DNA of 64,000 nucleotides from Candidatus Spongiisociaceae bacterium. Lineage in GTDB: Bacteria; Actinomycetota; Acidimicrobiia; Spongiisociales; Spongiisociaceae. The DNA is taken from assembly GCA_965243835.1 (NCBI GenBank), contig OZ251578.1, positions 732,854 to 796,853 of the forward strand. The letters run 5' to 3'. This document shows, one piece after another, positions 66 to 58,463 of the stretch. The position numbers and the translations under genes are program-made. Numbering within the stretch: position 1 is the first letter of the stretch; each line of letters opens with the position of its first letter. The notes under the pieces were generated by a model that worked only from the letters and a program-made list of their open reading frames with translations, made no database searches and was not told the origin of the DNA.

Positions 66-554
66 ATGCTTGCCGTTATGAAAAGCCGCGAGCAACGGGT
101 GGAGGAGGTGCATGCCCTCCTGCGGGAACTGGGCCGGGAGGAAGGGTCCGAGCGCGCCGCGAAGGTACTGGAAAATGTCAAGGCCTTCGATTTTACGGCC
201 GCCCGCTACGCGGCCGAGCGTTTCGACTTGGACGGCGTTCGCCGGGCGGCGGAGGATTTTGACCTGCTCCGGGAATCACAGGCCGACCGGGCCGGGTGCG
301 AAATCTACGACTTCGTGCCCCTTCGCAAGGCCTTGGCGAAGTATGACGAAGTGGCCGAAACCATAGGGGACCCGAAGCTGGTCTTCCAAGCCGTCTTGGC
401 GTTCAAGGACATAGTTGACAAGTTGGCGGATTTGTGGGAGGAGCAATTTGATTACCAAGGGACGGCGGGATACGCTATGGAATTGCGAGAACCTTGGGTT
501 GAAGACCCCGACGAATGGAAAGACTTGGTAGCCGAAGTGCTTGCTCGCGGTTAG
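66..554 (+). CDS. hypothetical protein (acidic, predicted helical)
   Basis: 162 aa ORF with composition like the neighbouring genes. Contains an internal FDF/FDL..AAE repeat. No family motif recognised. Confidence 0.45.
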   Translation: MLAVMKSREQRVEEVHALLRELGREEGSERAAKVLENVKAFDFTAARYAAERFDLDGVRRAAEDFDLLRESQADRAGCEIYDFVPLRKALAKYDEVAETIGDPKLVFQAVLAFKDIVDKLADLWEEQFDYQGTAGYAMELREPWVEDPDEWKDLVAEVLARG

Positions 555-568
555 CGGTGTCTTCTTTG

Positions 569-949
569 CTAGTTCTTTTTGGTAGCGCGTAGTAAAGCTT
601 CTTTACACTGGGCGCGTGACGCTACGCCCTCAGAAATAAGGGACATACTGAAGGTCGCCTCGTCTAACGTCATGCCAAGATCCTGCCAGTTTTGCCCATA
701 CCATTCCAATGCCTCAGCCAACTCCGGGGACATTCTGGCCTGCACGGCGGGGGGCCATCGCAACGGTCGGACGCTACCGATTTTTGTTTGGGGACTGCAG
801 TTATGTTTGGGCCAAGGCGGGCCTAGTTCATCAAAGAACACCTTCGATCCACAGGCGCAAGAATAATAAAACACCTCCTTCCCGCATATCTTGCATTGGG
901 TGGGGAAGGATTTGGAAACGCAAGTACCGTAGTCGTGGTAGGGGTTCAT
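569..949 (-). CDS. small Cys-rich zinc-ribbon-like protein (paralog 1)
   Basis: The N-terminal segment FPTQCKICGKEVFYYSCACGSKVFFDELGPPWPKHNC (CxxC...CxC...HxC) is shared with the adjacent ORF 965..1201. The C-terminal half is unique. Confidence 0.55.
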   Translation of the reverse strand: MNPYHDYGTCVSKSFPTQCKICGKEVFYYSCACGSKVFFDELGPPWPKHNCSPQTKIGSVRPLRWPPAVQARMSPELAEALEWYGQNWQDLGMTLDEATFSMSLISEGVASRAQCKEALLRATKKN

Positions 950-964
950 TGCCGGTTCTGTTTT

Positions 965-1201
965 CTATCGGCGCGAAGTCCTTCGCATAAATTCTTTGGC
1001 GGACCACGATGTCGGTTGGGAGTACCTAGTTTGGCCTTGCGTAGTGCAGTTATGCGCTGGCCATGGTTTGCCAAGGTCGTCAAAGAACACTTTTACCCCG
1101 TGAGCGCAAGAGTAATAAAAAACCTTTCTCCGGCACATTTTGCATTGGCTGGGAAACGCTCTACCTCCGCACCAAGGGCCGTGGGAAGGGTAGGGGTTCA
1201 T
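965..1201 (-). CDS. small Cys-rich zinc-ribbon-like protein (paralog 2)
   Basis: FPSQCKMCRRKVFYYSCAHGVKVFFDDLGKPWPAHNC has the same Cys/His spacing as 569..949. Its ATG overlaps the rpiB stop codon (ATGA). Confidence 0.55.
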   Translation of the reverse strand: MNPYPSHGPWCGGRAFPSQCKMCRRKVFYYSCAHGVKVFFDDLGKPWPAHNCTTQGQTRYSQPTSWSAKEFMRRTSRR

Positions 1202-1659
1202 TGCCTGGTCTCCGAGGGCGGGGTTTCCAGGGCTTGGATTTTTTGTAGGCGGCGCCGGTGGCGTTCCTCGCCGGTGAAGGTTGCGGTCAGGAAAGTTTCC
1301 GCTACTTCAGCCGCCAGGCTTCGGCCTACCACCCTGGCTCCCAGGCAGAGCACGTTTACGTTGTCGTGTTCCACCATCTGGTGGGCGGTGTAGTGGTCGT
1401 GGGCCACCGCCGCCCGGATTCCCCGCAGTTTGTTGGCGGCGATGGCCGCCCCCGCGCCCGATCCGCACACCGCGATGCCCCGCTCCGCCTCCCCGGCCCG
1501 CACCGCCTCGCCTACCGCCGCCGCCAGGTCCGGGTAGTCGACCGGTTCCTCGGAGTGGGTTCCCAGGTCGGTCACCCGGTAGCCCAGCCCGGACAGATGA
1601 TCCACCAGGAATTCTTTGAGCGCAAAACCGGCATGGTCTGCGCCGACGGCTACTGGCAC
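1198..1659 (-). CDS. rpiB: ribose-5-phosphate isomerase B (RpiB/LacA family)
   Basis: VGADHAGFALKE..., GIAVCGSGAGAAIAANK and NVLCLGARVVG are typical RpiB motifs. Length is 153 aa. Confidence 0.9.
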   Translation of the reverse strand: MPVAVGADHAGFALKEFLVDHLSGLGYRVTDLGTHSEEPVDYPDLAAAVGEAVRAGEAERGIAVCGSGAGAAIAANKLRGIRAAVAHDHYTAHQMVEHDNVNVLCLGARVVGRSLAAEVAETFLTATFTGEERHRRRLQKIQALETPPSETRQ

Positions 1660-7357: not shown

Positions 7358-8086
7358 ATGCGGAGGGACCGGCTGGCCGCTGTTGTGGGTGCAACAGCCT
7401 TGGTGTTCGCGGTTGCTACGGTGGTTGTGGCCCAGGGACGTTTTACTGATACCGATGGTCATTCACTGGAGGGGGATATCGACTATGCCGCGAACAGAGG
7501 CTGGTTTGCCGGGTACGATGACGGATCATTTCGCCCCGATCAGAGTATCACCCACCGGCAAATTGCGACTGTGGTCGGTAGGGCATTTCCCGATGGAGCG
7601 ACCCGGGCGGAGATGGCATCATTCATGCGCGGTGGCCGAGAACGAGTGGAGGCCCAAACATCGCTTGTCTACGCCGGTGCGGGGACAGGGTTGACTGCCG
7701 GGTTGCGCTTTCCTGGTTCGATAGGCTTACCAGACGGCTCATTAACGTCAGATTGGGGCTGTTGTTATGATTTTCGTCCAGCGGAAAAGTCTGCCCCTTG
7801 GTTGGCACAAATCAGGGTGACAGACACTGGCGAATACGACTCGTCACGCTTTAGTTTGTATGAAGCGGAGAACAAATCAAGCAGTAAGATCTTAATATCG
7901 GAGGATACCTTCCCGTTTTGCGGGCCAGAGTCTTGGAGAGATCCGTGTCCGTCTGCTCGTTCCTATTACACCATATTTATCCCGTTTAACGATAGGGAAT
8001 ATGTACTTAATGTAGAGAACGCTGGTTTGGGTGACACCTGGCAGATAAGATTCACACCATTACTAACAACGGCTACCCGAGATTAG
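7358..8086 (+). CDS. secreted protein with one SLH-like domain and a unique C-terminal domain
   Basis: Signal peptide MRRDRLAAVVGATALVFAVATVVVAQG, then FTDTDGHSLEGDIDYAANRGWFAGYDDGSFRPDQSITHRQIATVV (SLH-type pattern). The 3' half is visibly AT-richer. Confidence 0.6.
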   Translation: MRRDRLAAVVGATALVFAVATVVVAQGRFTDTDGHSLEGDIDYAANRGWFAGYDDGSFRPDQSITHRQIATVVGRAFPDGATRAEMASFMRGGRERVEAQTSLVYAGAGTGLTAGLRFPGSIGLPDGSLTSDWGCCYDFRPAEKSAPWLAQIRVTDTGEYDSSRFSLYEAENKSSSKILISEDTFPFCGPESWRDPCPSARSYYTIFIPFNDREYVLNVENAGLGDTWQIRFTPLLTTATRD

Positions 8087-8096
8087 GAAGATCAGC

Positions 8097-8297
8097 ATGT
8101 TGTCCACACATAGTTATAGATGCCTTCACGAGCAGGTCGTAGCCCGCCCCGGCGCCGAGGAGCGGCTAGCGGCCCTACGCGAGGCGACCTTGGAGGAGAT
8201 CGGCCGGTACGAACTGCGGCAAGCCTTGGGACAGTCGCAGATGGAAGTTGCCGCCGCCAGGTTTACGCAGGACGGGGGTAGTCGCCCTTCCCAATAA
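8097..8297 (+). pseudogene. possible truncated XRE-type HTH (antitoxin-like) remnant
   Basis: LREATLEEIGRYELRQALGQSQMEVAAA resembles the first helices of an XRE HTH, but the ORF ends right after it. Weak call. Confidence 0.25.
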
Positions 8298-8335
8298 GGC
8301 GCGTTCTCCCAATGCGGGATCGCGACCGGCGGGGT

Positions 8336-8913: not shown

Positions 8914-9366
8914 TTAGCCGAGGGCGGTTATTTGGTCTTCCAGGTTGCGGGGGGTCAGGATGTGGTCGGTAGTGAAAATGTCGGTCACCACCCCGTCCGC
9001 GTCCAGCGCGTAGGTAGCCCGGTCGGCGATGCCCAGTTGCTCGTTGAAGCACCCGTAGGCGGCGGCCGTCGCCCCGTGCGGCCAGAAGTCGCTCAGGATG
9101 GGAAACTCCAACCCCTCCAGTTCCGCCCATTTGCCGTTGCTGAACGGCGTGTCGCAGGTGATGACCACCGCGCCGGCGTCCAACTCCCGCAACCGGGACA
9201 GATTGTTCTGCAGGTCGCACACCTCCCCCGTGCACACCCCGGTGAACGGAAACGGGACGAACGTCACCAGCGTCTTCCGTCCCCGAAGCGAATCCAGCGT
9301 CACCGGATCCCGGTTGACGTCGGGAAGCGAAAAGTCGGGGGCGGGCTTGCCAATCTCTGCGGCCAT
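8914..9366 (-). CDS. peroxiredoxin (AhpE/Bcp-like thiol peroxidase)
   Basis: KPAPDFSLPD...LVTFVPFPFTGVCTGE active-site context. 150 aa. Confidence 0.85.
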   Translation of the reverse strand: MAAEIGKPAPDFSLPDVNRDPVTLDSLRGRKTLVTFVPFPFTGVCTGEVCDLQNNLSRLRELDAGAVVITCDTPFSNGKWAELEGLEFPILSDFWPHGATAAAYGCFNEQLGIADRATYALDADGVVTDIFTTDHILTPRNLEDQITALG

Positions 9367-9380
9367 TAATTTCTCCTTTG

Positions 9381-9935
9381 CTAGGGGTCAGAAGGTTTGG
9401 AGCAAAGTTCTAGCAGAACTTCGTGCATTTTGGCAAGCCTACCACCCCAATGCTTCAGCCATCCGGGTTCGGACCCCGGCGTAACGGTAAACCAATAGGT
9501 GTCTGAACCCTCCGCTCCTTTGTGCTGGGGCGTTGCATGCTTAAGTGCCTCGCTTTTGGGTATAGCCCATCCAGAGGCGTCAAAAGGGCTGATGCCTAGA
9601 CATATAACGATAGAGTAATCTTGATCTTTTATTTGTTGGAACTTATAAAAATTGCCGTCCCATAATGTTGACAATTTGATAACAACTCGTTTCCCTTCTA
9701 TTATTCTCTGCGCACCTTTACTGGCGTTTTTAACTGACAGTCCCTTCCCAATTGCCCATTCGGATATGAGGCCTCTTGCGACTTTGCCCTTTGTCCCTGG
9801 GGGAATACACCGTATCCATTCAAATTTGCTATTCTCCCAAATGATATGGTTACTAGCCTCCGTAGACTCTTGCAACCTGCTACTAATTGTTGCTATCTTT
9901 TCCACATCAGGGTCTGTAATTCGTTTTTGGGTCAT
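9381..9935 (-). CDS. putative type II restriction endonuclease (assigned by context)
   Basis: 184 aa ORF in the same AT-rich block as the methyltransferase. Its ATG overlaps the methyltransferase stop by 1 nt (TAATG). No nuclease motif identified with confidence. Confidence 0.45.
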   Translation of the reverse strand: MTQKRITDPDVEKIATISSRLQESTEASNHIIWENSKFEWIRCIPPGTKGKVARGLISEWAIGKGLSVKNASKGAQRIIEGKRVVIKLSTLWDGNFYKFQQIKDQDYSIVICLGISPFDASGWAIPKSEALKHATPQHKGAEGSDTYWFTVTPGSEPGWLKHWGGRLAKMHEVLLELCSKPSDP

Positions 9936-10819
9936 TAGATCATTACCTCCTGTACAGGCTTAGTTAAATCAGGTTCAAAGCCCGTATATTCGGGTGAATA
10001 AATAGCCAAACGTTTGACCATTATTTCTACCGCTTCCGGATTATTGTCAACCAAAGTAAATATTCTATTATGTTTCGCTGCCGCTTCGCCTGTTGTACCA
10101 GAACCAGCAAAAAAATCCAGTACTTGGTTACCTTCAAAGGTATGCACCCTTATTATACGATTCAAGATACCGAGCGGTTTCTGGGTAGGATATCCATTTC
10201 GTTCTGAACCATTGGTTGGTACTATAGTATGCCACCAAACGTCGGTTGGTGTTTTACCATTGGCGGCTTTTTCTTTAGTAACAAGCCCAGGAGCCATATA
10301 GGGTATGCGATCCATTTCATCGTAGTTAAAGGTGTAATTATTGGGATCTGATACATACCAGAATATGGTATCGTGTTTTGTCGGCCAGCGGGTTTTTTGA
10401 CGAGCACCATAGTCGTAAGCCCATATGATTTCATTCATAAAGCACTCCCGGCCAAAAATAGAATCAAGTGCCACTTTAGCATAGTGTGCCTCTCTATAGT
10501 CAATGTGAAGAAAAAAGGAACCATTATTGCGTAGTACTCGTTTGGCTTCTAGCAAGCGAGGAATAAGAAATCCCATATAGTCGTCGAATTGATCTTCGTA
10601 TGAATATAGTATCCCTTTTTCGCTTAGGTAATTTTTGCCTTGAAAACCTACCCTGTCGCCTTTGGGGTCAAACTTAGTTTTAAGGCGAGCATGCTGTTGT
10701 TGCTTACCGGTATTAAAGGGCGGGTCAATGTAGATAAGGTCAAAGAAACCGTCGGGGACAGTTTCCAGGAATTCCAGGTTATCACCTAGAATTATTCTTG
10801 ACGCGTATGTGTCTAGCAT
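9935..10819 (-). CDS. DNA methyltransferase, beta-class amino-MTase (N6-adenine or N4-cytosine)
   Basis: Motif IV LIYIDPPFNTG precedes motif I VLDFFAGSGTTGEAA, which is the beta-class order. ATG at 10819 (MLDTYASRIILGDN); an alternative GTG lies at 10900. Confidence 0.85.
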   Translation of the reverse strand: MLDTYASRIILGDNLEFLETVPDGFFDLIYIDPPFNTGKQQQHARLKTKFDPKGDRVGFQGKNYLSEKGILYSYEDQFDDYMGFLIPRLLEAKRVLRNNGSFFLHIDYREAHYAKVALDSIFGRECFMNEIIWAYDYGARQKTRWPTKHDTIFWYVSDPNNYTFNYDEMDRIPYMAPGLVTKEKAANGKTPTDVWWHTIVPTNGSERNGYPTQKPLGILNRIIRVHTFEGNQVLDFFAGSGTTGEAAAKHNRIFTLVDNNPEAVEIMVKRLAIYSPEYTGFEPDLTKPVQEVMI

Positions 10820-10920
10820 TCCCTGCAGTATAAGGTCACGAATTATAGATATACGCTGTAGGTCTATATTATTTTCCCAACCTAAGAATTTTTTTCCCAC
10901 TCTGGCGCGGGCGCTCCGGG

Positions 10921-12024
10921 TTAGGAGGCGAAGGAGTCGTCGAGGAGGACGCGGGCCGCCCAGCCGGTGGCGTCGGTGATTTCGCCGGGGGCGGGCAGGC
11001 GTTCCGGGCCCTCCCATATTTTGATTACCGCATCCGCTCCCCAGCGCCGTTCCACCTCGGCGCAGAACTCCGCCCCGGGTCCCCATTGTCCGGCCCGGGT
11101 CTCCGTTCCGGGTCCGCGGGCGATCCGTCCCGTCGTCAAATCGTCCCGTCCCGGACCCGCCTTCTCCCGCATCGCCTGCTGGATGGCCTCCAAGTCGGGG
11201 ATCATTTCCCCCGACAGGGACGACAGCGCGTAATCAGCGAAGCCCTCCAAAACCGTTATGAAACCGTTCACCGCCTCCAAAGCCGGGCCCTCGGCGGTGA
11301 CCGCCATGTTGCCCGGCGACAATTCGGCCCCCCCGGTCAGGGCAGCCCGCAACATCTCCGGGTCGCCCATCTCCTCCGGTCCGATTCCCAGGGTTTCCGG
11401 GTCCAACCGCAGGTCCTCCTGCATGTCCTCGACCAACCGCAGAAAATGGGGGCGCACCCACTCCCGGCCCAAAATCCCCTCCCGGAGGGTTTCCTGCACG
11501 GCGACCCACAATCGCACTTGCCGCCGGTCCAGATCGTATTCCCCGGCGAACGCCTCGATGGTGGGAACCACGAACCCCATCGGGCCGGGGGAGGCGGTGG
11601 GCAGGCCCGCGTCGAACTGCCCCAACGTGGTCCCCGCCAGCAAACCGGCCGCGGTTCCCATCTGCATGCCCAGCAGGGCCGGGGCCAGGGATTGCAACAT
11701 CGCCCCCATTCCCGCGGGGGCGGAGTCGGCGAACCGTTCCGCGATCCCCTCCACCAGATAGCGGTAGGAGCGGATGTTGAGCGCCGCCCAACCGGCCGGG
11801 TCCAGCGGGATGGGCTCGTTGACCGGGCTGAGGCGGAAAGGGGTGGCCTCCTCCACCCGGTAGGCGGCCAAGCGGAACAGTTCCACGTATTCGTCGGCCA
11901 ACCAGGGGTCCACCGGCGTCCGGGGGCCGGTGATGTGCCCCGCCACCTGTTCGGCCAAAGCCCAGTTCACCGGCCCCGGCTCTTTGAGCAGGTTCATCAA
12001 CTCGTCGAGAATGTTGCGGTCCAC
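10921..12024 (-). CDS. DUF2342-like putative zinc-metalloprotease family protein
   Basis: 367 aa. Overall resemblance to the actinobacterial DUF2342 family (N-terminal LDELMNLLKEPGPVNWALAEQVA). I could not see a canonical HExxH. Confidence 0.5.
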   Translation of the reverse strand: MDRNILDELMNLLKEPGPVNWALAEQVAGHITGPRTPVDPWLADEYVELFRLAAYRVEEATPFRLSPVNEPIPLDPAGWAALNIRSYRYLVEGIAERFADSAPAGMGAMLQSLAPALLGMQMGTAAGLLAGTTLGQFDAGLPTASPGPMGFVVPTIEAFAGEYDLDRRQVRLWVAVQETLREGILGREWVRPHFLRLVEDMQEDLRLDPETLGIGPEEMGDPEMLRAALTGGAELSPGNMAVTAEGPALEAVNGFITVLEGFADYALSSLSGEMIPDLEAIQQAMREKAGPGRDDLTTGRIARGPGTETRAGQWGPGAEFCAEVERRWGADAVIKIWEGPERLPAPGEITDATGWAARVLLDDSFAS

Positions 12025-21964: not shown

Positions 21965-22225
21965 TCACCCTCGCATTTCACTGATCAGCGGCGACACCGG
22001 CTCCTTCACCTTGAAACGGCGCGGCGGCAGGTACCTTTTGGTCGTTTTAGGCGGGGTGGAGGTTAACGGCCCATAATCGGCCATTACCGCTTCCATCGTG
22101 AGCAGGCCGTCTGAGGTTCTCTCGCCGGCAACGGACGTTGCCGGGCCGTTTTTGACCTGTTCCGCGTAGCGACGCAACCTGGAGCGCCGTTCCCTCCGAA
22201 ATGCTTTCGATTTGTCTTGCGTCAT
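21965..22225 (-). CDS. hypothetical small basic protein downstream of the Fic gene
   Basis: 86 aa ORF in the same AT-richer block as the Fic gene, 15 nt after its stop. Weak Shine-Dalgarno and no recognisable motif. Confidence 0.35.
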   Translation of the reverse strand: MTQDKSKAFRRERRSRLRRYAEQVKNGPATSVAGERTSDGLLTMEAVMADYGPLTSTPPKTTKRYLPPRRFKVKEPVSPLISEMRG

Positions 22226-22239
22226 TTTCGGAGATTCCT

Positions 22240-23745
22240 TTAGGGAGCGGTAAGCCCGTTTCCTCTTCCTACTACCCGGTGGCTTAACTCCTGCACCGCT
22301 ACCGCCAGCGAATGGTCGAGCCAGTCATACAGTTCGACTGAGCGGTTGTCCACTTCCTCGTCGTGGGAGAAGGTGAAGGCGTCCCACGAGGTTTCCACAA
22401 ATTCTTCGGCGGTGCTGTGGCCTTCGCCCCGCGCCCGCGGCTTGCGATGTTGGATAAGGCCGAAGGAAGTGATAGCCATTACGCCGGTGCGGAGGCTGCC
22501 CACGTGATGAATGGAAACGACCAACTGCATTCGGAAACCGTCGATGTCCACCTGTAGCATCTGCCACCATTTGTCCAATGTCAGATCGGCGTAATATTCG
22601 GCGCGTTGGGCGGTTCGAATAATTTCACGACGCCACTTGTGAGATCGGTCTTTTTGCGCCCCATCGATATCAGTTTTTACTCTTCGTTTTTGTTCTTTGA
22701 AAATTTCCTCCAGGTCGCGGACAGCTCCTTTCAGCCAGTCTTCGATCCGGGCATGCATTTCCTCTGCTCTTATATGAACTGCCACCGCTTTTTGTTCAGA
22801 AAGTTGCCTTTCTTTCAGCTCCCATGACCTCGCAAAAGCCCGGGCGACTTCTTTGGCGGTTTGCGGCTCCGGAGAAGAAACAGGCGCCGGTTCTTGTAGT
22901 TCGTTGCGGATAGATCGCATGGCCAACTTGGTGAACAGTTGACCAAAATGGGTTAGATCTCCATTGTTGGCTATATCCAGAGCCCTTAAATACCGATCCC
23001 GATCGTTTCTGCTGACGACAATAGGCGGATAGTGGTCTCTTTCTAGGGATAGCAACACTAGGACGCGGGCTACGCGGCCGTTCCCGTCTTCAAAAGGATG
23101 GATTTGCACAAACCGGTGGTGCAACCAAGCCGCCGAGACAATGGGATGAACATGATCTATCATGTCGTTATAAAGTTTGACAAGGTGTTCCATCTCCCCA
23201 TCTACTTGTTCAGGAGGCGCAAACTCCAACAGTGAACCGTCGCTACGTATCACATTATTGGGCGTTTTTTTGAAATCGCCATGCCGTAGAGGAGGTTGTA
23301 CTGGATTCCCCAGCGTATCGGTGGCATCATAGGTTTGCTGGGTTTGGGTGATAAGTTGATGCAGTTCTTTAATGAAAAAGGGAGACAGGGCTCGGTCTTT
23401 TTTTACGAAGTCGATTGCTAATTCCAGTCCTTGCATTTGCGCTCGCAGGGTGGATAAAACTCCGTCCGGAACGTCTCCTCCCGCTCGGAAAACCGTTTCC
23501 TTGGTTAAACCTTCCACTACTAAAGCCCTGGTTAAACCCCAATCGAGGTCGTACAACCTTTCCAGAATTCCGGTTTCAATGGCTTGCTTGCGGAGGGTGC
23601 GCCGGCGCAACTCCCTTTTGTCGGCCTCGTCCAAAACGGCGGTGAAATCACGCCATTGGCGGTGCAGGGCTTCGGCCGCGGCCAAATCGCCGCGTAGCTT
23701 TTCCTCCACCGCGGGGTCAAGCGGCTGAATGGGACGCCAGCTCAT
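22240..23745 (-). CDS. Fic/DOC-family protein with ~200 aa C-terminal extension of unknown function
   Basis: Canonical Fic motif IHPFEDGNGRVARVL (HxFx[D/E]GNGRxxR) in mid-protein. The C-terminal region shows no family I recognise. Confidence 0.85.
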   Translation of the reverse strand: MSWRPIQPLDPAVEEKLRGDLAAAEALHRQWRDFTAVLDEADKRELRRRTLRKQAIETGILERLYDLDWGLTRALVVEGLTKETVFRAGGDVPDGVLSTLRAQMQGLELAIDFVKKDRALSPFFIKELHQLITQTQQTYDATDTLGNPVQPPLRHGDFKKTPNNVIRSDGSLLEFAPPEQVDGEMEHLVKLYNDMIDHVHPIVSAAWLHHRFVQIHPFEDGNGRVARVLVLLSLERDHYPPIVVSRNDRDRYLRALDIANNGDLTHFGQLFTKLAMRSIRNELQEPAPVSSPEPQTAKEVARAFARSWELKERQLSEQKAVAVHIRAEEMHARIEDWLKGAVRDLEEIFKEQKRRVKTDIDGAQKDRSHKWRREIIRTAQRAEYYADLTLDKWWQMLQVDIDGFRMQLVVSIHHVGSLRTGVMAITSFGLIQHRKPRARGEGHSTAEEFVETSWDAFTFSHDEEVDNRSVELYDWLDHSLAVAVQELSHRVVGRGNGLTAP

Positions 23746-23769: not shown

Positions 23770-24612
23770 TTAGGGGGACACCAAGGATTGGTAGGCGTCG
23801 GGGCGGCGGTCCCGGTAGAAGGCCCACACTTTGCGCACTTCGTCGATCATGTCCATGTCCAGGTCCCGTACCAGCACCTCCTCGTCGACATCGGAGGCGG
23901 GGTCGCCCACCAGTTGCCCGCGCGGGTCTACGAAATAGGACGAACCGTAGAAGTCATTATCACCGTACGGTTCGGAGCCGACTCGGTTGATGGCCCCGAT
24001 GAAGTACTCGTTGGCTACCGCCGAGGCGGGTTGCTCCAGGTTCCACAAGTACATCGACAAGCCCCGGCTGGTGGCCGACGGGTTGAACACCAGTTTCGCC
24101 CCCGCCAGACCCAGGGCCCGCCACCCCTCCGGGAAATGCCGGTCGTAGCAGATGTACACCCCCACCCGTCCCACCGCCGTGTCGAACACCGGATAGCCCA
24201 GGTTGCCGGGACGGAAGTAAAACTTCTCCCAGAACCCGGGTAGATGCGGAATGTGGGTCTTGCGGTATTTGCCCAGATAAGTCCCGTCGGCGTCGATCAC
24301 CGCCGCCGTGTTGTACAGAAACCCGTCGTCCTCCTTCTCGTATACGGGGACCACCAGCACCATCTCCGTCTCCCGGGCGGTTTGGAGCATGCGTTGCACG
24401 GTGGGTCCCTCCGGTACCCGCTCCGCGGCGTCCTTGTGGACATCGTCCTGCACCTGGCAGAAGTAGGGGCCGTTGCACAGCTCCTGGAAGCACAGCACCC
24501 GGGCCCCCCGCTCGGCCGCCTGCCGGGCGTAGCCGACGCTCTTTTCCACCATGGACTCGAGGTCCCCGGTCCACGCCGTCTGGACGATGGCCGCCCGAAT
24601 GATGTTAGCCAT
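23770..24612 (-). CDS. carbon-nitrogen hydrolase (nitrilase superfamily; beta-ureidopropionase / N-carbamoyl-amidohydrolase-like)
   Basis: Catalytic contexts CFQELC (Glu), YRKTHIP (Lys) and GVYICYDRHFPE (Cys). 280 aa. Confidence 0.85.
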   Translation of the reverse strand: MANIIRAAIVQTAWTGDLESMVEKSVGYARQAAERGARVLCFQELCNGPYFCQVQDDVHKDAAERVPEGPTVQRMLQTARETEMVLVVPVYEKEDDGFLYNTAAVIDADGTYLGKYRKTHIPHLPGFWEKFYFRPGNLGYPVFDTAVGRVGVYICYDRHFPEGWRALGLAGAKLVFNPSATSRGLSMYLWNLEQPASAVANEYFIGAINRVGSEPYGDNDFYGSSYFVDPRGQLVGDPASDVDEEVLVRDLDMDMIDEVRKVWAFYRDRRPDAYQSLVSP

Positions 24613-24623
24613 TATCTTCCTCC
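24575..24623. repeat. direct repeat copy A (hydrolase RBS plus first 12 codons)
   Basis: gccgtctggacgatggccgcccgAatgatgttAgCcatt..cttcctcc aligns with 26287-26336. The first 23 nt are identical; beyond that I count 3 substitutions and one 2/3 nt difference by eye. Confidence 0.85.
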
Positions 24624-24934
24624 GTTTTTTCCTGCATAGTATCTTTTATTTGCAACGAAACAATATTGGATACGGGGGTCATAATATTCCCGGTGAGTAG
24701 TAGCCACTGATAGATACCCTCTACCCCTTCCCATGCCGACAGCACCTTCCTTAGTCCGCTAGGATCGAGACTAATCTGTTGGTGAGACTTGCCGTCTCTC
24801 ACGATGGGATCTCTAAGAGAAGCGAGCGCCGTCAACGGATCTTTCCGTATCCTCTCCCTTAGGTCTCTACTGTCAGAAAGGGACATCGTTTTTAGTATGT
24901 CGGCTTGCCTGTCAATCAGGTTATCTTCTGTCAT
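24605..24934 (-). CDS. hypothetical protein (cassette gene 2)
   Basis: 109 aa ORF with a strong GAGGAG Shine-Dalgarno 6-7 nt upstream, in an AT-richer region. Its last codons run into direct repeat A. No motif recognised. Confidence 0.5.
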   Translation of the reverse strand: MTEDNLIDRQADILKTMSLSDSRDLRERIRKDPLTALASLRDPIVRDGKSHQQISLDPSGLRKVLSAWEGVEGIYQWLLLTGNIMTPVSNIVSLQIKDTMQEKTEEDNG

Positions 24935-24960
24935 ACTTTGTTCTCCTCTTAAGTGTTAAG

Positions 24961-26262
24961 CTAATGGTTTCGGGCAGATAGATGTTGTGTACCTTCCTTT
25001 ACTTCTATTGTCCGACCGGGAAAGATCTCATGCAATCTTGCTAAAGGAAGGATCGGTATTCCCATTTCGCGGGCTTTGGAGGCTTTTCCCGATTCGGACT
25101 GCGCGTCCAACGCTAAAACGAGTCGCGTATACTTTTTGGCCAAGCCGCCAGTGATTAAGCCGCGGTCTGCCAACTTTTTACCTATCTCGGTTCTTGTCAG
25201 GGTGGGGTGTTGGCCGGTGAGGGTAATACGATCTCCCTCCGTCAAGATGACCGTCTCCGGCAATTCTGTTGTTTCTTCGTAACCCCGGGTGCGTCGATTA
25301 ACCGTAGACTCTTCAGATACAGCACCAACTTCGGTGATCAGATTATCGATATATTTCCGTTCGGTTGCCGTAACTACCCCATCAGATAATGCTTTGTCTA
25401 CTTCTCGGTTGATAAATTCTCGTTCCGCCGCTTTCTGGGTTTGCTCACACCAACCCAGAGATTTTGCTAGCTCGTCCAGCTCGGCACGTTCCTCTTTGGT
25501 TAGCACCTCGTCTTCCAACGCTTCCTGTAGCAAGTCGAAATAAGACTCGGTGATGCTCGATTCCTCGATTTGCGGGAACTTATTCCCATCGCGTAATAGA
25601 ACTCTGCCCGAGACTGGAGCGGATACGGTGACGGTGGCGGGTCGGGCGAAAATCCGATCCGAGAGGATCGCGTCCTCGCAAAGGGAGAACAGGCCAGCCG
25701 TTGCCTCGGCGTCCCCCATTGCCGAATGCCAGCGGGAAGTGCGCACTCCGGCCGATTGGCAAACGTCTGATAGTTTCCCGGGCCACATTGACGAAGTATC
25801 GAACCAGGAGCCCTCCGCGAATAGATGGCCGCCTATTCGTCCAAATTCGTTTTTAAGCATACGTAAGTCGAAGAGAATGTTGTGTCCTACTAGTAATCGC
25901 CCGTTCAGTCGATCCCGAATGTCCCCTGCTATTTCCAAGAAGCGAGGGGCTTGTTGAACCATTGTGGCGGAGATGCCATGTATGTGTTGCACCTCCAGCG
26001 ATATATCCCGCTCAGGTTGCACCATGGTTTGCCACCGGTCGGTTATTTGGCAGGTTGCGTTTATTTGAAGGATTGCTATCTCCACCACCCGGTCCTTATT
26101 GTAGACCCCGGTGGTTTCCACATCAACCACGGCATATTCGGCTCCTATAGTGTCCGACCATTTCCGCCATAATGAGGTCCCGTCAGATTTTGGAGCAGGA
26201 ACGCCCTGCGCAGGGTTCAACGCGGACCGGCGGGTTGCGCGACGCCTCCCGTATTTCAACAT
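24961..26262 (-). CDS. DEDDh 3'-5' exonuclease (DnaQ/epsilon-like) with helical middle region and C-terminal BRCT-like domain
   Basis: ExoI VVDVETTG, ExoII LVGHNILFDLRML, ExoIII HSAMGDAEATAGLF. The C-terminus GDRITLTGQHPTLTRTEIGKKLADRGLITGGLAKKYTRLVLA...KASKAREMGIPIL is BRCT-like. The middle LTKEERAELDELAKSLG repeats are TerB-like (inference). Confidence 0.8.
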   Translation of the reverse strand: MLKYGRRRATRRSALNPAQGVPAPKSDGTSLWRKWSDTIGAEYAVVDVETTGVYNKDRVVEIAILQINATCQITDRWQTMVQPERDISLEVQHIHGISATMVQQAPRFLEIAGDIRDRLNGRLLVGHNILFDLRMLKNEFGRIGGHLFAEGSWFDTSSMWPGKLSDVCQSAGVRTSRWHSAMGDAEATAGLFSLCEDAILSDRIFARPATVTVSAPVSGRVLLRDGNKFPQIEESSITESYFDLLQEALEDEVLTKEERAELDELAKSLGWCEQTQKAAEREFINREVDKALSDGVVTATERKYIDNLITEVGAVSEESTVNRRTRGYEETTELPETVILTEGDRITLTGQHPTLTRTEIGKKLADRGLITGGLAKKYTRLVLALDAQSESGKASKAREMGIPILPLARLHEIFPGRTIEVKEGTQHLSARNH

Positions 26263-26324
26263 GGCGCCTCCCAGGAGGAAGAAACGGCCGTCTGGACGAT
26301 GGCCGCCCGGATGATGTTCGACAT
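26256..26324 (-). pseudogene. remnant 5' end of the carbon-nitrogen hydrolase gene (22-codon ORF MSNIIRAAIVQTAVSSSWEAPC)
   Basis: MSNIIRAAIVQT matches MANIIRAAIVQT at the start of 23770..24612. The ORF's TGA lies 4 nt after the exonuclease ATG (CCATGTTGA). Confidence 0.7.
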
Positions 26325-26336
26325 TGGTCTTCCTCC
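26287..26336. repeat. direct repeat copy B
   Basis: Partner of 24575-24623, offset by 1712 bp. It sits immediately after the stop of the upstream substrate-binding-protein gene. Confidence 0.85.
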
Positions 26337-26361
26337 TGGTTGGCCGGGCCCGCCGGCGGGT

Positions 26362-27492
26362 TTATTCGCCGCCGGGGTTGAGGGCGACGGTGGTGCGGCT
26401 CCAGTTGGAGCCGACCGTGTCCAATCCTTCCCCGTTGAGGGCGTTGACTGCGTCTTGGGCGAAGTCGGTGCGGTAGGCCCCCGAGCCCGGAGCGGACTCG
26501 ATCACTCCCTGGCTGGTGGCCACGTTCACCGTCTGCGCCCACAGGTCGGAGTTCATAACCCCGATCCCGCCCGGGGAGGGCCAGATCAGACCGTTTATTT
26601 CGTTCATCTGCCAGGTCTGATGGCTGCGCCCCAGAGTGGGCCCGGCGTCGAGAACGATGTCCACGCACGAATCCGGGTTGTCCCGGCAGTAGATCCAACC
26701 CCGGAAACTGGCCCGCAGGAAAGCCCCTACGGTGTCCGGGTTATTCCTCGCGTAATCCTCGGTCACCCAGATGGCGTCCTGCAACATGGCGGTGGCGATG
26801 TCGGGATCGTTGAAGTCGATCACGTTCAGGTCCTCCGGTTGGTAGAGCTGACCCGTGTCCGGGTTGGTAGCCTCCAGCACCTGGGCGTACTCGTTGTAGA
26901 TCATCGCCTCCGCGGCGTCGATCTCCCGGTTGAGCAGGGCCTCCATGTCGAAGCTCTGACCGACCAGTTCCACATCCGGCACATTGAATTTTTCGATGGC
27001 GGCGGTCAACTCGAACTCGTTGCCGAACCCCCAGTTGCCGACCGTGCGGCCCGCCCAATCGGCGGGGGAGGTGATGCCCGAGTCGGCCCAGGACACCATC
27101 AACGTGCCCGACCGTTGGAACACCTGTCCCACATTGACCAGCCCGGCCCCTTCCTGGTTGGAGACCAACGCCTTGGGAACCCAGGCCAGACCGAACTGGG
27201 CCCCGCCGGTGGCCACCACCTGCTGGGGAACGATTTCCACCGCCCCCTCCAGGATGGTCACGTCCAAGCCCTCGTCGGCGTAAAACCCTTGGTCGACGGC
27301 GGCGTAGTAACCGGCGAACTGCGCTTGGGCCACCCACTGCAACTGCAGGTTGACGGGGGTCATGGGCATAACCGTGGTGGTGGTCGCCGCGGTGGTGGCT
27401 GGCGTTTCCTCATTTCCTCCGCAGGCGGAGGCCAGCAAAGCAAAAGCGGTTGCCGCCGCTCCCAACCGGGCAAAAGTTTTTCCGTGCGACAT
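26362..27492 (-). CDS. ABC transporter substrate-binding lipoprotein (NMT1/THI5-SsuA-like)
   Basis: Lipobox LLASAC and LQLQWVAQAQFAGYYAAVDQGFYADEGLDV, typical of NMT1/SsuA-like binding proteins. ATG at 27492 is preceded by AAGGAGGA. Confidence 0.8.
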   Translation of the reverse strand: MSHGKTFARLGAAATAFALLASACGGNEETPATTAATTTTVMPMTPVNLQLQWVAQAQFAGYYAAVDQGFYADEGLDVTILEGAVEIVPQQVVATGGAQFGLAWVPKALVSNQEGAGLVNVGQVFQRSGTLMVSWADSGITSPADWAGRTVGNWGFGNEFELTAAIEKFNVPDVELVGQSFDMEALLNREIDAAEAMIYNEYAQVLEATNPDTGQLYQPEDLNVIDFNDPDIATAMLQDAIWVTEDYARNNPDTVGAFLRASFRGWIYCRDNPDSCVDIVLDAGPTLGRSHQTWQMNEINGLIWPSPGGIGVMNSDLWAQTVNVATSQGVIESAPGSGAYRTDFAQDAVNALNGEGLDTVGSNWSRTTVALNPGGE

Positions 27493-27582
27493 GGAACTTT
27501 CCTCCTTCAATCCGTCCCCCTCTGATGGCGCAAGTATAGCCGGTGCGCGCGTCGGGGTAGCCGGAAACGGAGAATTGAATTT

Positions 27583-55775: not shown

Positions 55776-56294
55776 TTACCGGGTAGCGGTCTCGGCGACG
55801 CGTGCTTTGGCTTCTTCGGCAGATTTGGCTTCTTCAGAGGCTTTTTTAACGGTGTAGGCGACGGTGCCATAGGGGTCGTCGGCGTAGGCGGCGTAGGCGG
55901 CGCAAATGAAGGCGGCGGCTTGGGCGCAGGCGGCGGCGGCGAAGGCAACGGCTTTGTAGGTGGCTTTGACGCGGTCGGCGGCTTCATGGGCTTCGTAGGC
56001 GCGGGTGGCTATAGCGTCGGCGCGGTCGGCGGCACAACGGGCGGCTTTGGCGGCTTCGTAGGCGGCTTCGATGGCGCGATCGTATGTGCCAGCGGCGGCG
56101 TAGGTAGCGGCTTCGGAGACGCGGTCCTCGGCTTTTTTGGCGGCTTCGGCGGCTTCGGCGTAGGCGGCTTTGGCGTGGTCGGCAGCGAAGCTACCCTTGG
56201 TGTAGTCGGTTTGGATGGCGTCGCGGCCAGCTTTGGCGGCTTTGGCGGCGCGGCGGGCCATTTCTTTGGCGGTGGCTATAGCGTTGGCGGTCAT
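55776..56294 (-). CDS. Ala-rich helical protein, no signal peptide
   Basis: 172 aa ORF with a strong AAGGAGGA Shine-Dalgarno. Low-complexity A/E/K/Y composition (AAYAEAAEAAKKAE...). Last gene of a minus-strand cluster. Confidence 0.55.
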   Translation of the reverse strand: MTANAIATAKEMARRAAKAAKAGRDAIQTDYTKGSFAADHAKAAYAEAAEAAKKAEDRVSEAATYAAAGTYDRAIEAAYEAAKAARCAADRADAIATRAYEAHEAADRVKATYKAVAFAAAACAQAAAFICAAYAAYADDPYGTVAYTVKKASEEAKSAEEAKARVAETATR

Positions 56295-56310
56295 GGCGTT
56301 CCTCCTTTTT

Positions 56311-56943
56311 CTAGCAGTCTGTCATGAAGGCGAAGTCGGTTATAGATATTTCCATGACGAACGGTTCGGTGGTTTTTTCAAGTTGAATGTATCCGGCTAG
56401 GGGAGCGTCCGTAGCGGCTATCGCATCAAAGGTCTGTAGCCCGTCGGGTATATTCCCTAGCCGCATCCAACGGCATCCCGCCGGTAGTCGGTAGTGTCCG
56501 GGTTCAATATAACTATAATCATTATCGGTCCATGTGGTATTGTTGGGGTTATATCCGATAAAATATATATTATCCCCCGGAGACTCCAGTTCGCGGTAGC
56601 CTAGTGGATTTTCCCGTGATGGTCTTAGTCTTTCTTCGTTACCGGCTACTAGGAACGAGGCGAATTCGGCTCGGGTTATTCCTTCGTCAAACGCCCGCCA
56701 TAGCACACGGGTCATTTCGGAAGGGCTTATGTTCTGGTCGGGTTTATAGGTACCGTCCCCGTAGCCTATGAACCATCTTTGTTCAGCTACATAGTTGATG
56801 TTATCCAGATGGGGATTGTTAGCGGGGACATCGGAAAATTGTATCTGGGCGACTACCGGAACGGCCAGCAGTACGGCGGCGGCTACCGCTATAATCGTCC
56901 AACTAACGGCGGGTCTTCCCGGTCGGAGGCTAGGTCGTTTCAT
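56311..56943 (-). CDS. secreted protein: SLH-like module plus small C-terminal domain ending in Cys
   Basis: Signal peptide ...LAVPVVAQ then IQFSDVPANNPHLDNINYVAEQRWFIGYGDGTYKPDQNISPSEMTRVLWRAF. C-terminus ...CRWMRLGNIPDG...FDAIAATDAPLAGYIQLE...FMTDC. ATG at 56943 is preceded by GAAGGGAAA. Confidence 0.7.
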   Translation of the reverse strand: MKRPSLRPGRPAVSWTIIAVAAAVLLAVPVVAQIQFSDVPANNPHLDNINYVAEQRWFIGYGDGTYKPDQNISPSEMTRVLWRAFDEGITRAEFASFLVAGNEERLRPSRENPLGYRELESPGDNIYFIGYNPNNTTWTDNDYSYIEPGHYRLPAGCRWMRLGNIPDGLQTFDAIAATDAPLAGYIQLEKTTEPFVMEISITDFAFMTDC

Positions 56944-56966
56944 CGTATTTCCCTTCTTCGGTTCGT

Positions 56967-57671
56967 CTAACATTGTACCATGAAGGCGGTGTCGGTTGGT
57001 TCTATTCTAATAATATATGGTTGCCACGTGCTTTCAAGTTGAATGTGTCCGGCTAGGGGAGCGTCCGTAGCGGCTATCGTATCAAAGTTCTGTCCCCCTT
57101 CGGGTATATAACCTAACCGCATCCAACGACAGGCCTTGTCTACAGTACGATACCCCCACCCTCTATTATACACATGACAGGGATACCCGGGGGTGGTGGC
57201 AGCGCAATATCTTTCCGGCCCCTCGCCCCTTATTCGGATGCGTCCGGGTGAAATATAGTTCAATCCTTCCCTTCTTTCTTCGCCGGGCTTTTCAACTATG
57301 TATAGACCCGTTCTGACTACGAGGTTTCGGTAATCGGGAGTTTCTTTTATTCTTTGTCGCCATTCGTTTCCGGCGGTCATAAACGACGCGAATTCCGCCC
57401 GTGTTATCCCTTCTTCAAACGCCCGCGTTAGCACATTAGTCATCTGGGCGGGGGTTATTTTCTGGTCGGGTTTATAGGTACCGTCCCGATAGCCCAAGAA
57501 CCATCTTTCACCGGCTACATAGTTGATATCATCCCGGTGGGGGTTATCGCCAGCGACATCGGAAAATTGTATCTGGGCGAAGACGGGGACGGCTAGCAAG
57601 ACAGCGGCGGCTACGGCTATGGCCGTCCAACGGACGGGTCTGCTCGCTCGGAAGGCTCGTTTAATCTTCAT
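56967..57671 (-). CDS. secreted protein, paralog of 56311..56943
   Basis: Same signal peptide and SLH module, same C-terminal CRWMRLGYIPEG...FDTIAATDAPLAGHIQLE...FMVQC. ATG at 57671 is preceded by GAAAGGGA. Confidence 0.7.
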   Translation of the reverse strand: MKIKRAFRASRPVRWTAIAVAAAVLLAVPVFAQIQFSDVAGDNPHRDDINYVAGERWFLGYRDGTYKPDQKITPAQMTNVLTRAFEEGITRAEFASFMTAGNEWRQRIKETPDYRNLVVRTGLYIVEKPGEERREGLNYISPGRIRIRGEGPERYCAATTPGYPCHVYNRGWGYRTVDKACRWMRLGYIPEGGQNFDTIAATDAPLAGHIQLESTWQPYIIRIEPTDTAFMVQC

Positions 57672-57715
57672 CAGGTTCCCTTTCAATGGTTAACCGTCAT
57701 ATGGTACGGGTCGGG

Positions 57716-57982
57716 CTATCCCCTCCATCGTGCCATGGCAGCACCAAAACACATAATCCCAAGCACTTCCACGACTCGGCTCAAGTTTGCCCATAAAGAG
57801 GGTGGAGCTTCGTCTACGGAGGTAAATAAATATAGGACGATCGATCCGATCACCAAAGAGAAACCCAACCAAGCAAACACCTTGTCAATGGGGGCTTCGC
57901 CCTTTCGCTCGTTGGTGCAACCACTGTCCGTGCTGCCTTGGCAGTTGCACGAGTCGGACTTTGCGTTAATTTTGATCTTCAT
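57716..57982 (-). CDS. small membrane protein with Cys-rich N-terminus
   Basis: 88 aa. AGGAGGA Shine-Dalgarno 6 nt upstream of the ATG at 57982. N-terminus SDSCNCQGSTDSGC followed by two hydrophobic segments. Confidence 0.5.
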   Translation of the reverse strand: MKIKINAKSDSCNCQGSTDSGCTNERKGEAPIDKVFAWLGFSLVIGSIVLYLFTSVDEAPPSLWANLSRVVEVLGIMCFGAAMARWRG

Positions 57983-58463
57983 TGTCGTCCTCCTTGGGGC
58001 GGCTTGATTGAATTGTCGATGGGAATATGCCAAATCTTGATAAGACCGTGTTCGTCTTGTCGCGGATTACTTGCCAGGCGGGTACCTGGCGGGTCCGGAG
58101 CTCGCTTGGTGCGAGGCGGCATCCGTTTGCGGCTTTTATGGAGGGGGGATGGTTATCCTCAAGATCGCCCTGCCGGGTGGTTGCGGGTACTGTGGCGATG
58201 TTTCGGGTGTCGCAGTGGGGGTGGGCGGGTTCTGAGGCGGCCCGGCGGCTAGCGCGCATAAGGGCGGACGCGTCGGTGCTTGTGGCACCGATCGGTAAGG
58301 CTCTGGAGGACGACGGCTTCTCGGTAGGGAACCATCCCTCGCTACCGCAACGGCGGTTTGGGGGTTGCCGGGTTGCGCGGGGGAGCCGGGTTTGGGCATC
58401 GGTCGCCATAACGCCTGCGACCGACGTTACGGTCGATGCTACGGCGGCGGGTGGCGGTTTCAT
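57966..58463 (-). CDS. hypothetical protein or degenerate family member downstream of module copy 3
   Basis: ATG at 58463 is preceded by GGAAAGGA and the module. The N-terminus MKPPPAAVAS...GSEGWFP echoes MKLRTAA...AEGWFP of proteins A and B, but the remainder has odd composition. It may be a decayed gene. Confidence 0.3.
   Translation of the reverse strand: MKPPPAAVASTVTSVAGVMATDAQTRLPRATRQPPNRRCGSEGWFPTEKPSSSRALPIGATSTDASALMRASRRAASEPAHPHCDTRNIATVPATTRQGDLEDNHPPSIKAANGCRLAPSELRTRQVPAWQVIRDKTNTVLSRFGIFPSTIQSSRPKEDDNEDQN

Follow-up and report, generated by a model that had tools for sequence, protein, structure and literature searches.

The stretch of DNA analysed here (the window) comprises 64,000 nucleotides of contig OZ251578.1 from Candidatus Spongiisociaceae bacterium, a member of the actinobacterial class Acidimicrobiia (assembly GCA_965243835.1, positions 732,854 to 796,853). 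Within it, a two-gene cassette of low GC content interrupts the 5' end of a carbon-nitrogen hydrolase gene and is flanked by two direct copies of that gene's ribosome-binding site (RBS) and first 12 codons. All genes of the window described below lie on the minus strand. In order of transcription, the locus begins with the genes for two ATP-binding cassette (ABC) permeases and an ATPase (30019 down to 27583), followed by the gene for an NMT1/THI5-like substrate-binding protein (26362-27510; Pfam NMT1, E 3e-41), which ends the ABC-transporter block upstream of the insertion. Next come a 22-codon remnant or leader open reading frame (ORF; 26256-26324), a gene for a 433-aa exonuclease (24961-26262; Pfam RNase_T, E 8e-21, and BRCT), an orphan 109-aa ORF without a family, termed orf109 (24605-24934), and the hydrolase, which is the target gene (23770-24612; Pfam CN_hydrolase, E 4e-63). 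The hydrolase gene is intact and host-like in GC, and its closest NCBIfam match is aguB-like, under the curated cutoff.

The inserted DNA proper, defined by its GC contrast and by its absence from sister and outgroup genomes, measures 1663 bp (24624-26286). GC between the repeats is 0.46-0.55, compared with ∼0.63-0.70 in the flanks and a window mean of 0.64, which places the insert ∼13 points under the genome's value. An earlier reading of the letters alone (the original prediction) had described the cassette genes, their coordinates and their AT-richer composition, and all of these check out. It had also described ∼50-bp direct repeats flanking the cassette at an offset of 1712, and these are real. 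The upstream copy, U (26287-26336, 50 nt), consists of the host RBS, the ATG and 11 further hydrolase codons plus 2 nt. The downstream copy, D (24575-24623, 49 nt), contains the functional RBS and start of the hydrolase. A repeat search returned 39 nt at 92%, in register and at a spacing of 1712, and by eye the repeat reaches out to the RBS GGAGGAAGA. The two copies share an identical 23-nt core, CGGGCGGCCATCGTCCAGACGGC, which occurs at exactly two sites in the window, also when 3 mismatches are allowed, and has no match in 100 shuffles. On its 3' side, U is followed by the insert sequence CGTTTCTTCC and D by the hydrolase sequence GTGGACC, the same as in relatives that lack the insert.

The protein collection contains three close relatives of the exonuclease, at 99, 89 and 83% identity, and one of orf109, at 85%. 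Besides the window, the cassette is carried by contigs L081, L082, L083/L084 and L208, which come from different samples of one metagenome project. All carriers have the binding protein, the remnant ORF, the exonuclease, orf109 and the hydrolase in the same order, with both repeat copies present, and the recurrence of this structure in five independently assembled contigs shows that it is no assembly artefact.

The next-closest lineages, taken from a hydrolase protein search, have empty sites. In L209, L215 and L216, whose hydrolase is 94% identical at the amino acid level and 91% at the nucleotide level, the binding-protein gene is followed by a 30-nt spacer and the hydrolase, and L209 also has the same HAD/transporter synteny upstream as the carriers. 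In L210-L214 and L217 (hydrolase 89-91% identical in amino acids) the spacer is 87-92 nt, and the two genes are likewise adjacent in further genera of the Acidimicrobiia (L002, L006-L010). In L005, 4 kb separate the two genes; this is an unrelated rearrangement comprising a membrane protein and a two-component system of normal GC. A neighbour-joining tree of hydrolase DNA unites the five carriers in a single terminal clade, to which the empty-site contigs are sister or outgroups. The sequence data thus make a single gain on the stem of the carrier clade the parsimonious reading, which repeated precise loss is not. The original prediction had proposed that the insertion split the hydrolase from a transporter operon and that relatives should have an empty site. 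Empty sites indeed occur in the sister lineages, in further lineages and in other genera, and the carriers are monophyletic.

Comparison of the carriers with the empty sites allows the ancestral copies to be reconstructed as GGAGGAAGACCAATGGCGAACATCATCCGGGCGGCCATCGTCCAGACGGC for U and GGAGGAAGAT-AATGGCTAACATCATCCGGGCGGCCATCGTCCAGACGGC for D. The RBS region of U can be recognised as the orthologue of that in L210, a relative with an empty site (GAGGAGAACCTATG versus GAGGAAGACCAATG), indicating that U is host sequence. The motif GGAGGAAGA is common to U and D and missing from the sister lineages; D is thus closer to U in its RBS than those lineages are, which fits D having been copied from the host target instead of having a separate origin. 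The identical core extends over 23 nt in the window and 32 nt in the relatives, and the fixed mismatches all lie on one side of it. Only two differences between U and D are fixed in all carriers, CC>T (the loss of one base) and GCG>GCT. Others are lineage-specific, namely TCG in the window's U, ATCGCC in the U of L081, and ATT in the D of the window and L083, indicating that the copies have not been homogenised.

The two fixed differences bear directly on orf109, whose last 6 codons and TAA lie inside D and overlap the hydrolase start. We replaced them in silico, alone and together, and read the resulting length of the orf109 frame. If D were a perfect duplicate of U, orf109 would read on for 212 codons, through the hydrolase and out of frame with it. 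With the base loss alone the frame reads 324 codons, and with the G>T change alone 212 codons. Only when both changes are present does the TAA appear, overlapping the hydrolase start (ATGGCTAA). Since both differences are needed to place the orf109 stop on the hydrolase start, selection on the insert explains the imperfection of the repeat, and we read the fixed differences as tuning after insertion, not as a sign that D is of foreign origin. The imperfect repeats had been taken to speak against a target-site duplication, an argument that loses its force here. D does supply a working RBS and start, so the downstream repeat restores an intact hydrolase as had been proposed, but an element carrying its own replacement for the 5' end of its target is not needed to explain this, D being a near-copy of the host RBS and start.

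At the upstream junction, U opens the 22-codon ORF, which as read off the sequence encodes MSNIIRAAIVQT followed by AVSSSWEAPC and a stop. Its TGA overlaps the start of the exonuclease gene (ATGTTGA), beginning 4 nt downstream of the A of the ATG, as the original prediction had stated, and all five related contigs preserve both the frame and the stop of the ORF. The same region can form a hairpin (26271-26339): the first bases of the insert, TCTTCCTCCTGG (26271-26282), are a perfect 12-nt reverse complement of the leader RBS tract CCAGGAGGAAGA (26328-26339, as read on the mRNA strand), 45 nt upstream, and the exonuclease RBS, GGGAGG, stands directly 3' of TCTTCCTCCTGG. This stem dominates the predicted fold (minimum free energy -56 kcal/mol, z -2.0) and is present in all carriers; the two transitions found in L208 leave G.U pairs in place. 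By chance alone, 64 kb should contain ∼1.4 perfect inverted repeats of 12 bp, and 2 are observed, so the hairpin is notable for its position only. The 12-bp pairing may damp or regulate translation of the leader, or it may be templated filler from end joining.

From the binding-protein gene to the leader, no terminator was found on the coding strand, and a scan of the cassette locus gave promoter- and terminator-like matches at chance level only. A cassette without a detectable promoter or terminator is probably transcribed from the host operon. The exonuclease gene is followed after 26 nt by a strong RBS and orf109, and the spacing and overlap of the reading frames suggest that translation is probably coupled at each cassette junction. 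In L208 the exonuclease (827-2152) has lost its stop, is 8 codons longer and overlaps the start of orf109 (2149-2481) in an ATGA, so that in this contig the two cassette genes would be directly coupled.

The exonuclease comprises a DEDDh domain (residues ∼45-195), TerB-like helical repeats (∼237-325) and a BRCT domain (∼337-412). In an alignment with 14 relatives, D47, E49, H179 and D184 of the catalytic set are invariant and D132 is near-invariant. In an AlphaFold model with a predicted local distance difference test score (pLDDT) of 76, the exonuclease domain is predicted with confidence and is followed by a helical central part and an alpha/beta domain at the C-terminus; Foldseek relates the exonuclease domain to Pol III epsilon and the N-terminal exonuclease of DinG. 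In one relative, Pfam finds TerB marginally (E 0.003, below the gathering cutoff) together with BRCT, both at the corresponding regions. We infer a DEDDh 3'-5' exonuclease whose catalytic set is intact and which also has TerB-like and BRCT modules. Residues 1-44 form a lineage-specific N-terminal extension, without counterpart in the family and predicted to be disordered. The best NCBIfam match, NF004719 (E 3e-37), scores 128 bits against a curated cutoff of 389, indicating that the exonuclease is not the actinobacterial DnaQ-BRCT equivalog.

The PADLOC models for the candidate defence family PDC-S48 match the protein over its full length (PDLC05027, E 7.4e-88, 293 bits; PDLC05028, E 8.8e-46, residues 38-415). 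PADLOC PDC genes are unvalidated candidate predictions (PMC11514479), and a literature search for PDC-S48 returned no paper. The most likely role for the exonuclease would be accessory nucleic-acid degradation in phage defence. Homologues of 598 aa that are 45-49% identical (L085, L087) have no orf109 partner and are accompanied by HEPN, DUF433, DUF6036, PLD-like and Fic genes in a region of low GC. In L085 the 47% identical homologue stands in a low-GC stretch (1-21797) rich in genes of the defence and toxin-antitoxin type, which include HEPN, DUF433 twice, DUF6036, PLD-like and DUF488 genes and one for a 1034-aa Fic protein.

For orf109, no family was found in Pfam, NCBIfam, PHROGs or PADLOC, and 5.8 billion clusters contain no homologue from outside the carrier clade. 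When 1.84 billion representatives were searched exhaustively, only two candidate remote homologues emerged, P0169 and P0170; both are spurious, their scores being inflated by the summing of many 0-6-bit matches to the repeats of beta-rich surface proteins. The AlphaFold model of the product is helical and of low confidence. It would most likely act as a partner or regulator of the exonuclease.

Both cassette genes are under purifying selection. Measured against L081 and L082, the ratio of nonsynonymous to synonymous substitution rates (dN/dS) is 0.21-0.26 for the exonuclease and 0.17-0.30 for orf109; that of the hydrolase is 0.04-0.08. Within the exonuclease, the first 45 codons are nearly neutral, with a ratio of nonsynonymous to synonymous proportions (pN/pS) of 0.5-1.0 in most pairs and 0.33 in one, compared with 0.17-0.29 in the rest of the gene, the near-identical pair of the window and L083 aside. 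Synonymous divergence of the cassette genes is up to ∼2 times that of flanking core genes, most clearly against L081 (0.41 versus 0.15-0.18). This fits foreign, AT-richer genes drifting under the mutation bias of the host, and separate acquisitions are not required to account for it.

As the original prediction had observed, no integrase or transposase accompanies the insert. Recombinase Pfam families are missing from the cassette and from ∼10 kb on either side of it in the window, L081, L082 and L083, and Pfam, NCBIfam, PHROGs and PADLOC detect no transposase gene in the cassette. No tRNA or Rfam element was found near it. Its left end, GTTTCTTCCTCC, matches the reverse complement of the right end at 10 of 12 positions in the window; this terminal inverted match is not conserved among the carriers, whose right end varies because it encodes the orf109 tail. 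The integron core has the consensus GTTRRRY/RYYYAAC. The junctions of the insert, GTTTCTT and AAAAAAC, do not fit it, and with no integrase present the insert does not qualify as an integron cassette. There is no sign of a recurring integrating element either. A second hydrolase 5' end upstream of the gene was found in none of 80 other species-level hydrolase loci (Streptomyces matches in this survey were to a downstream paralogue), the cassette occurs nowhere else, and orf109 has no homologue outside the clade. Phage and plasmid collections contain no close or full-length relative, save one 29% identical gene on an Arthrobacter plasmid, and scans of metagenome, viral, phage and plasmid data returned only distant members of the exonuclease family, at 37% identity or less. 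There is accordingly no sign that the insert is still mobile: no second copy, excision or recurrent use of the site was found.

Flanking repeats were also sought around 30 other full-length relatives of the exonuclease, and were notable only in L102/L105, a 70%-GC soil contig in which a 26-nt repeat (96%) brackets a 30% identical exonuclease/TerB/BRCT gene (L102, 5339-5364 and 7242-7267; L105, 3633-3658 and 5536-5561). The bracketed gene has no GC contrast, and we rejected the repeat as the mark of a split gene, the ORFs concerned being spurious and only the right copy overlapping the end of a truncated methyltransferase-like frame. Among the other low-GC islets of the window (301-1300, 7501-8300, 9301-11000 and 56201-58200), none has comparable flanking repeats. 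Those at 301-1300 and 56201-58200 contain internal diverged repeats, of 120 nt at a spacing of 249 and of 287 and 166 nt at ∼700, respectively.

We consider it likely that the locus records a single old insertion of a foreign two-gene module, without a recombinase of its own and with a target duplication of ∼50 bp, that was later built into the host operon. In the ancestor of a single clade of Acidimicrobiia, a 1.66-kb low-GC module entered the transporter-hydrolase operon at a point 36 nt inside the hydrolase frame, and ∼50 bp of the target, comprising the RBS and 12 codons, were duplicated. D then became the working start of the hydrolase and U a 22-codon leader ORF, and the module has been inherited vertically ever since. 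The joining itself was most likely an illegitimate capture at a staggered break with fill-in, which would give a long target duplication. We favour this route because the event is unique, the ends cut into the cassette frames, the left junction resembles filler and D is host-like. The ragged ends are seen on both sides: the tail of orf109 is encoded by the repeat, and the exonuclease begins with 44 aa that have no equivalent in the family, are predicted to be disordered and evolve under weak constraint.

Integration of a small element lacking its own recombinase and akin to cis-mobilisable elements, either site-specifically or by short-homology Campbell integration, would produce a similar picture, and we regard it as unlikely but as the strongest of the alternatives. 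A circle bearing a ∼50-bp attachment (att) site that mimics the hydrolase RBS and first 12 codons would have been joined to the chromosome by short homology or by a recombinase acting in trans, and the 5' part of D would have come in with it. This would account for direct repeats that share 32 identical nt and have all their fixed mismatches on one side, for the shift of those mismatches towards AT, as in the insert, and for the regeneration of the target gene; the orf109 stop in the repeat, with its need for both differences, would be natural if it were the element's own sequence. Yet no integrase is found in the cassette or within ∼10 kb in any carrier, and with the genes abutting both repeats there is no room for a decayed one. 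The site is unused in the 80 other species, the cassette with orf109 is found nowhere else, a single gain is followed by vertical descent, and the RBS of D is host-like. Campbell-type integration further predicts circles, other sites or a linked integrase, none of which was found in the available data.

Considerably less probable still is homology-facilitated illegitimate recombination with a linear donor in which the cassette already lay upstream of a homologous hydrolase, the right end recombining within the 5' end of the recipient hydrolase and the left end being joined illegitimately 36 nt into the gene, with the recipient's own start left behind as U. A donor homologue could pair with the hydrolase N-terminus, MANI(I/V)RAAIVQT, which is strongly conserved between genera. 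The GCT in D and the ATT in the D of the window and L083 are AT-richer codons, and the left junction has a 12-17-nt inverted copy of nearby host sequence, like templated filler. Such a crossover, however, would have to be confined to the first 15-20 nt of the gene, which leaves almost no anchor, and the remaining hydrolase is host-like in GC. The RBS of D is also closer to that of U than the orthologous sites of sister lineages are, and no donor-like arrangement is known. That the cassette is instead ancestral, the empty sites having arisen by repeated precise deletion, we find hardly credible. Recombination between 50-bp direct repeats would restore a clean site, but the cassette is confined to a single terminal clade, with empty sites in at least three successive lineages outside it and in several further genera. 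The insert lies ∼13 GC points below the genome, and the empty sites have spacers and RBSs that do not match U and D, which is unexpected after recent deletion.

Several points weigh against a single insertion with a target duplication. Two to three separate mutations, none of which alone gives a stop, would have been required in D, and a single nonsense change would have been a more parsimonious way of terminating orf109. The two-step stop is thus not the shortest route, which leaves room for the sequence of D having arrived with the insert. The 32-nt identical core with its one-sided mismatches also resembles the attL/attR pair of a site-specific recombinase, and a duplication of 50 bp is far longer than the footprints of known transposases. 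No compensatory changes were seen in the hairpin among the carriers, whose sequences are too similar to lend it support from covariation. Finally, close relatives have been sampled from one metagenome project only, and expression, coupling and a defence function of the cassette are predicted only.

Directly downstream of the hydrolase lies a second low-GC islet (GC ∼0.48), a Fic-domain gene (window 22240-23745, Pfam Fic; L081, 12517-14022; L215, 2033-3538; L210, 7186-8703) that matches the SoFic and PDC-S04 defence models. It is present in sister contigs that lack the exonuclease and absent from the carriers L082 and L208, which have toxin-antitoxin genes instead. This distribution indicates that the Fic gene is independent of the exonuclease cassette and that its position is a variable spot. 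In L081 an 11-nt stretch of the hydrolase stop region, CCCTAACCGGC, recurs as a repeat flanking the Fic gene. An 86-aa ORF, 3' of the Fic gene in transcription order (window 21965-22225; L082, 12460-13136), is fast-evolving (dN/dS 0.26-0.40). A PIN-domain gene comes after it in L082 and a PhdYeFM antitoxin gene before it in L081, and it looks like a toxin-antitoxin component. Upstream of the hydrolase, at ∼40-70 nt from its start, the more distant Acidimicrobiia L003, L004, L006, L009 and L010 share a conserved motif, CTAGGTTT / CTAGATTT, possibly a promoter element of the -10 type. The window's clade, whose spacer is short, lacks the motif there, and its hydrolase appears to depend on the transporter operon.

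The locus offers a clean and phylogenetically dated case of a foreign gene pair that interrupted a reading frame and yet spared the gene. Through a long target duplication the hydrolase regained its start, the copy left over was turned into a leader ORF, and a stop/start overlap arose by two small changes, so that the insert appears, from the arrangement of its frames, to be positioned for translational coupling in the host operon. A candidate defence gene of the PDC-S48 type thereby resides in a metabolic operon rather than in a defence island, near a variable Fic/toxin-antitoxin position. If the 50-bp duplication reflected a repeatable mechanism and not a repair accident, it would point to a way for high-GC actinobacteria to gain genes without a recombinase. 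The evidence so far is that of a single historical event in an uncultured lineage, and contains nothing to indicate a repeatable mechanism. One may speculate further that PDC-S48-type exonuclease genes travel as minimal, recombinase-free cassettes that duplicate tens of bp of their target (50 bp here, possibly 26 bp in L102/L105), and that the duplicated start signals are reused as a leader-ORF/hairpin switch controlling the nuclease. This idea we hold to be very doubtful.

Acquired defence-type genes wedged between core genes are already known, as are islands that regenerate their target gene. What is unusual here is a recombinase-less 1.66-kb insert that disrupts a reading frame, carries a 50-bp duplication rebuilding the start, and was then tuned to a stop/start overlap. 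The 30-37% identical relatives of the exonuclease also combine a DEDDh exonuclease, TerB-like helices and BRCT; from the PDC-S48 candidate family the cassette exonuclease differs in its extra 44-aa N-terminus and its conserved orphan partner gene, and in lying within a metabolic operon and not in a defence island, the defence activity of the family being a prediction only. With NF004719 and mycobacterial DnaQ (PMC10634781) it shares a DEDDh exonuclease domain followed by BRCT, whereas its TerB-like insert, low GC and restriction to one clade set it apart as accessory rather than a core replication factor.

Target duplications made by known transposases measure 2-15 bp. A transposon's target-site duplication abuts both ends of the insert, as it does here, but the present one is 50 bp long, no transposase is present and the 10/12 terminal match is unconserved. 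Like islands and prophages inserted by an integrase between attL and attR, the cassette has flanking direct repeats, a restored target gene, empty sites in relatives and a foreign composition. In contrast to them, it has no recombinase and no recurrence, measures only 1.66 kb and has ends that cut into its own genes. In its setting the locus resembles the recombinase-free defence hotspots between core genes surveyed in E. coli (PMC10121019): here too a candidate defence gene is wedged between conserved core genes, and in the Acidimicrobiia contigs a second candidate, the SoFic-like Fic gene, and toxin-antitoxin genes vary at the adjacent position. Unlike the genes of such hotspots, the cassette described here lies inside a reading frame, is bordered by a long duplication that rebuilds the start of the gene it interrupted, and is stable within its clade.

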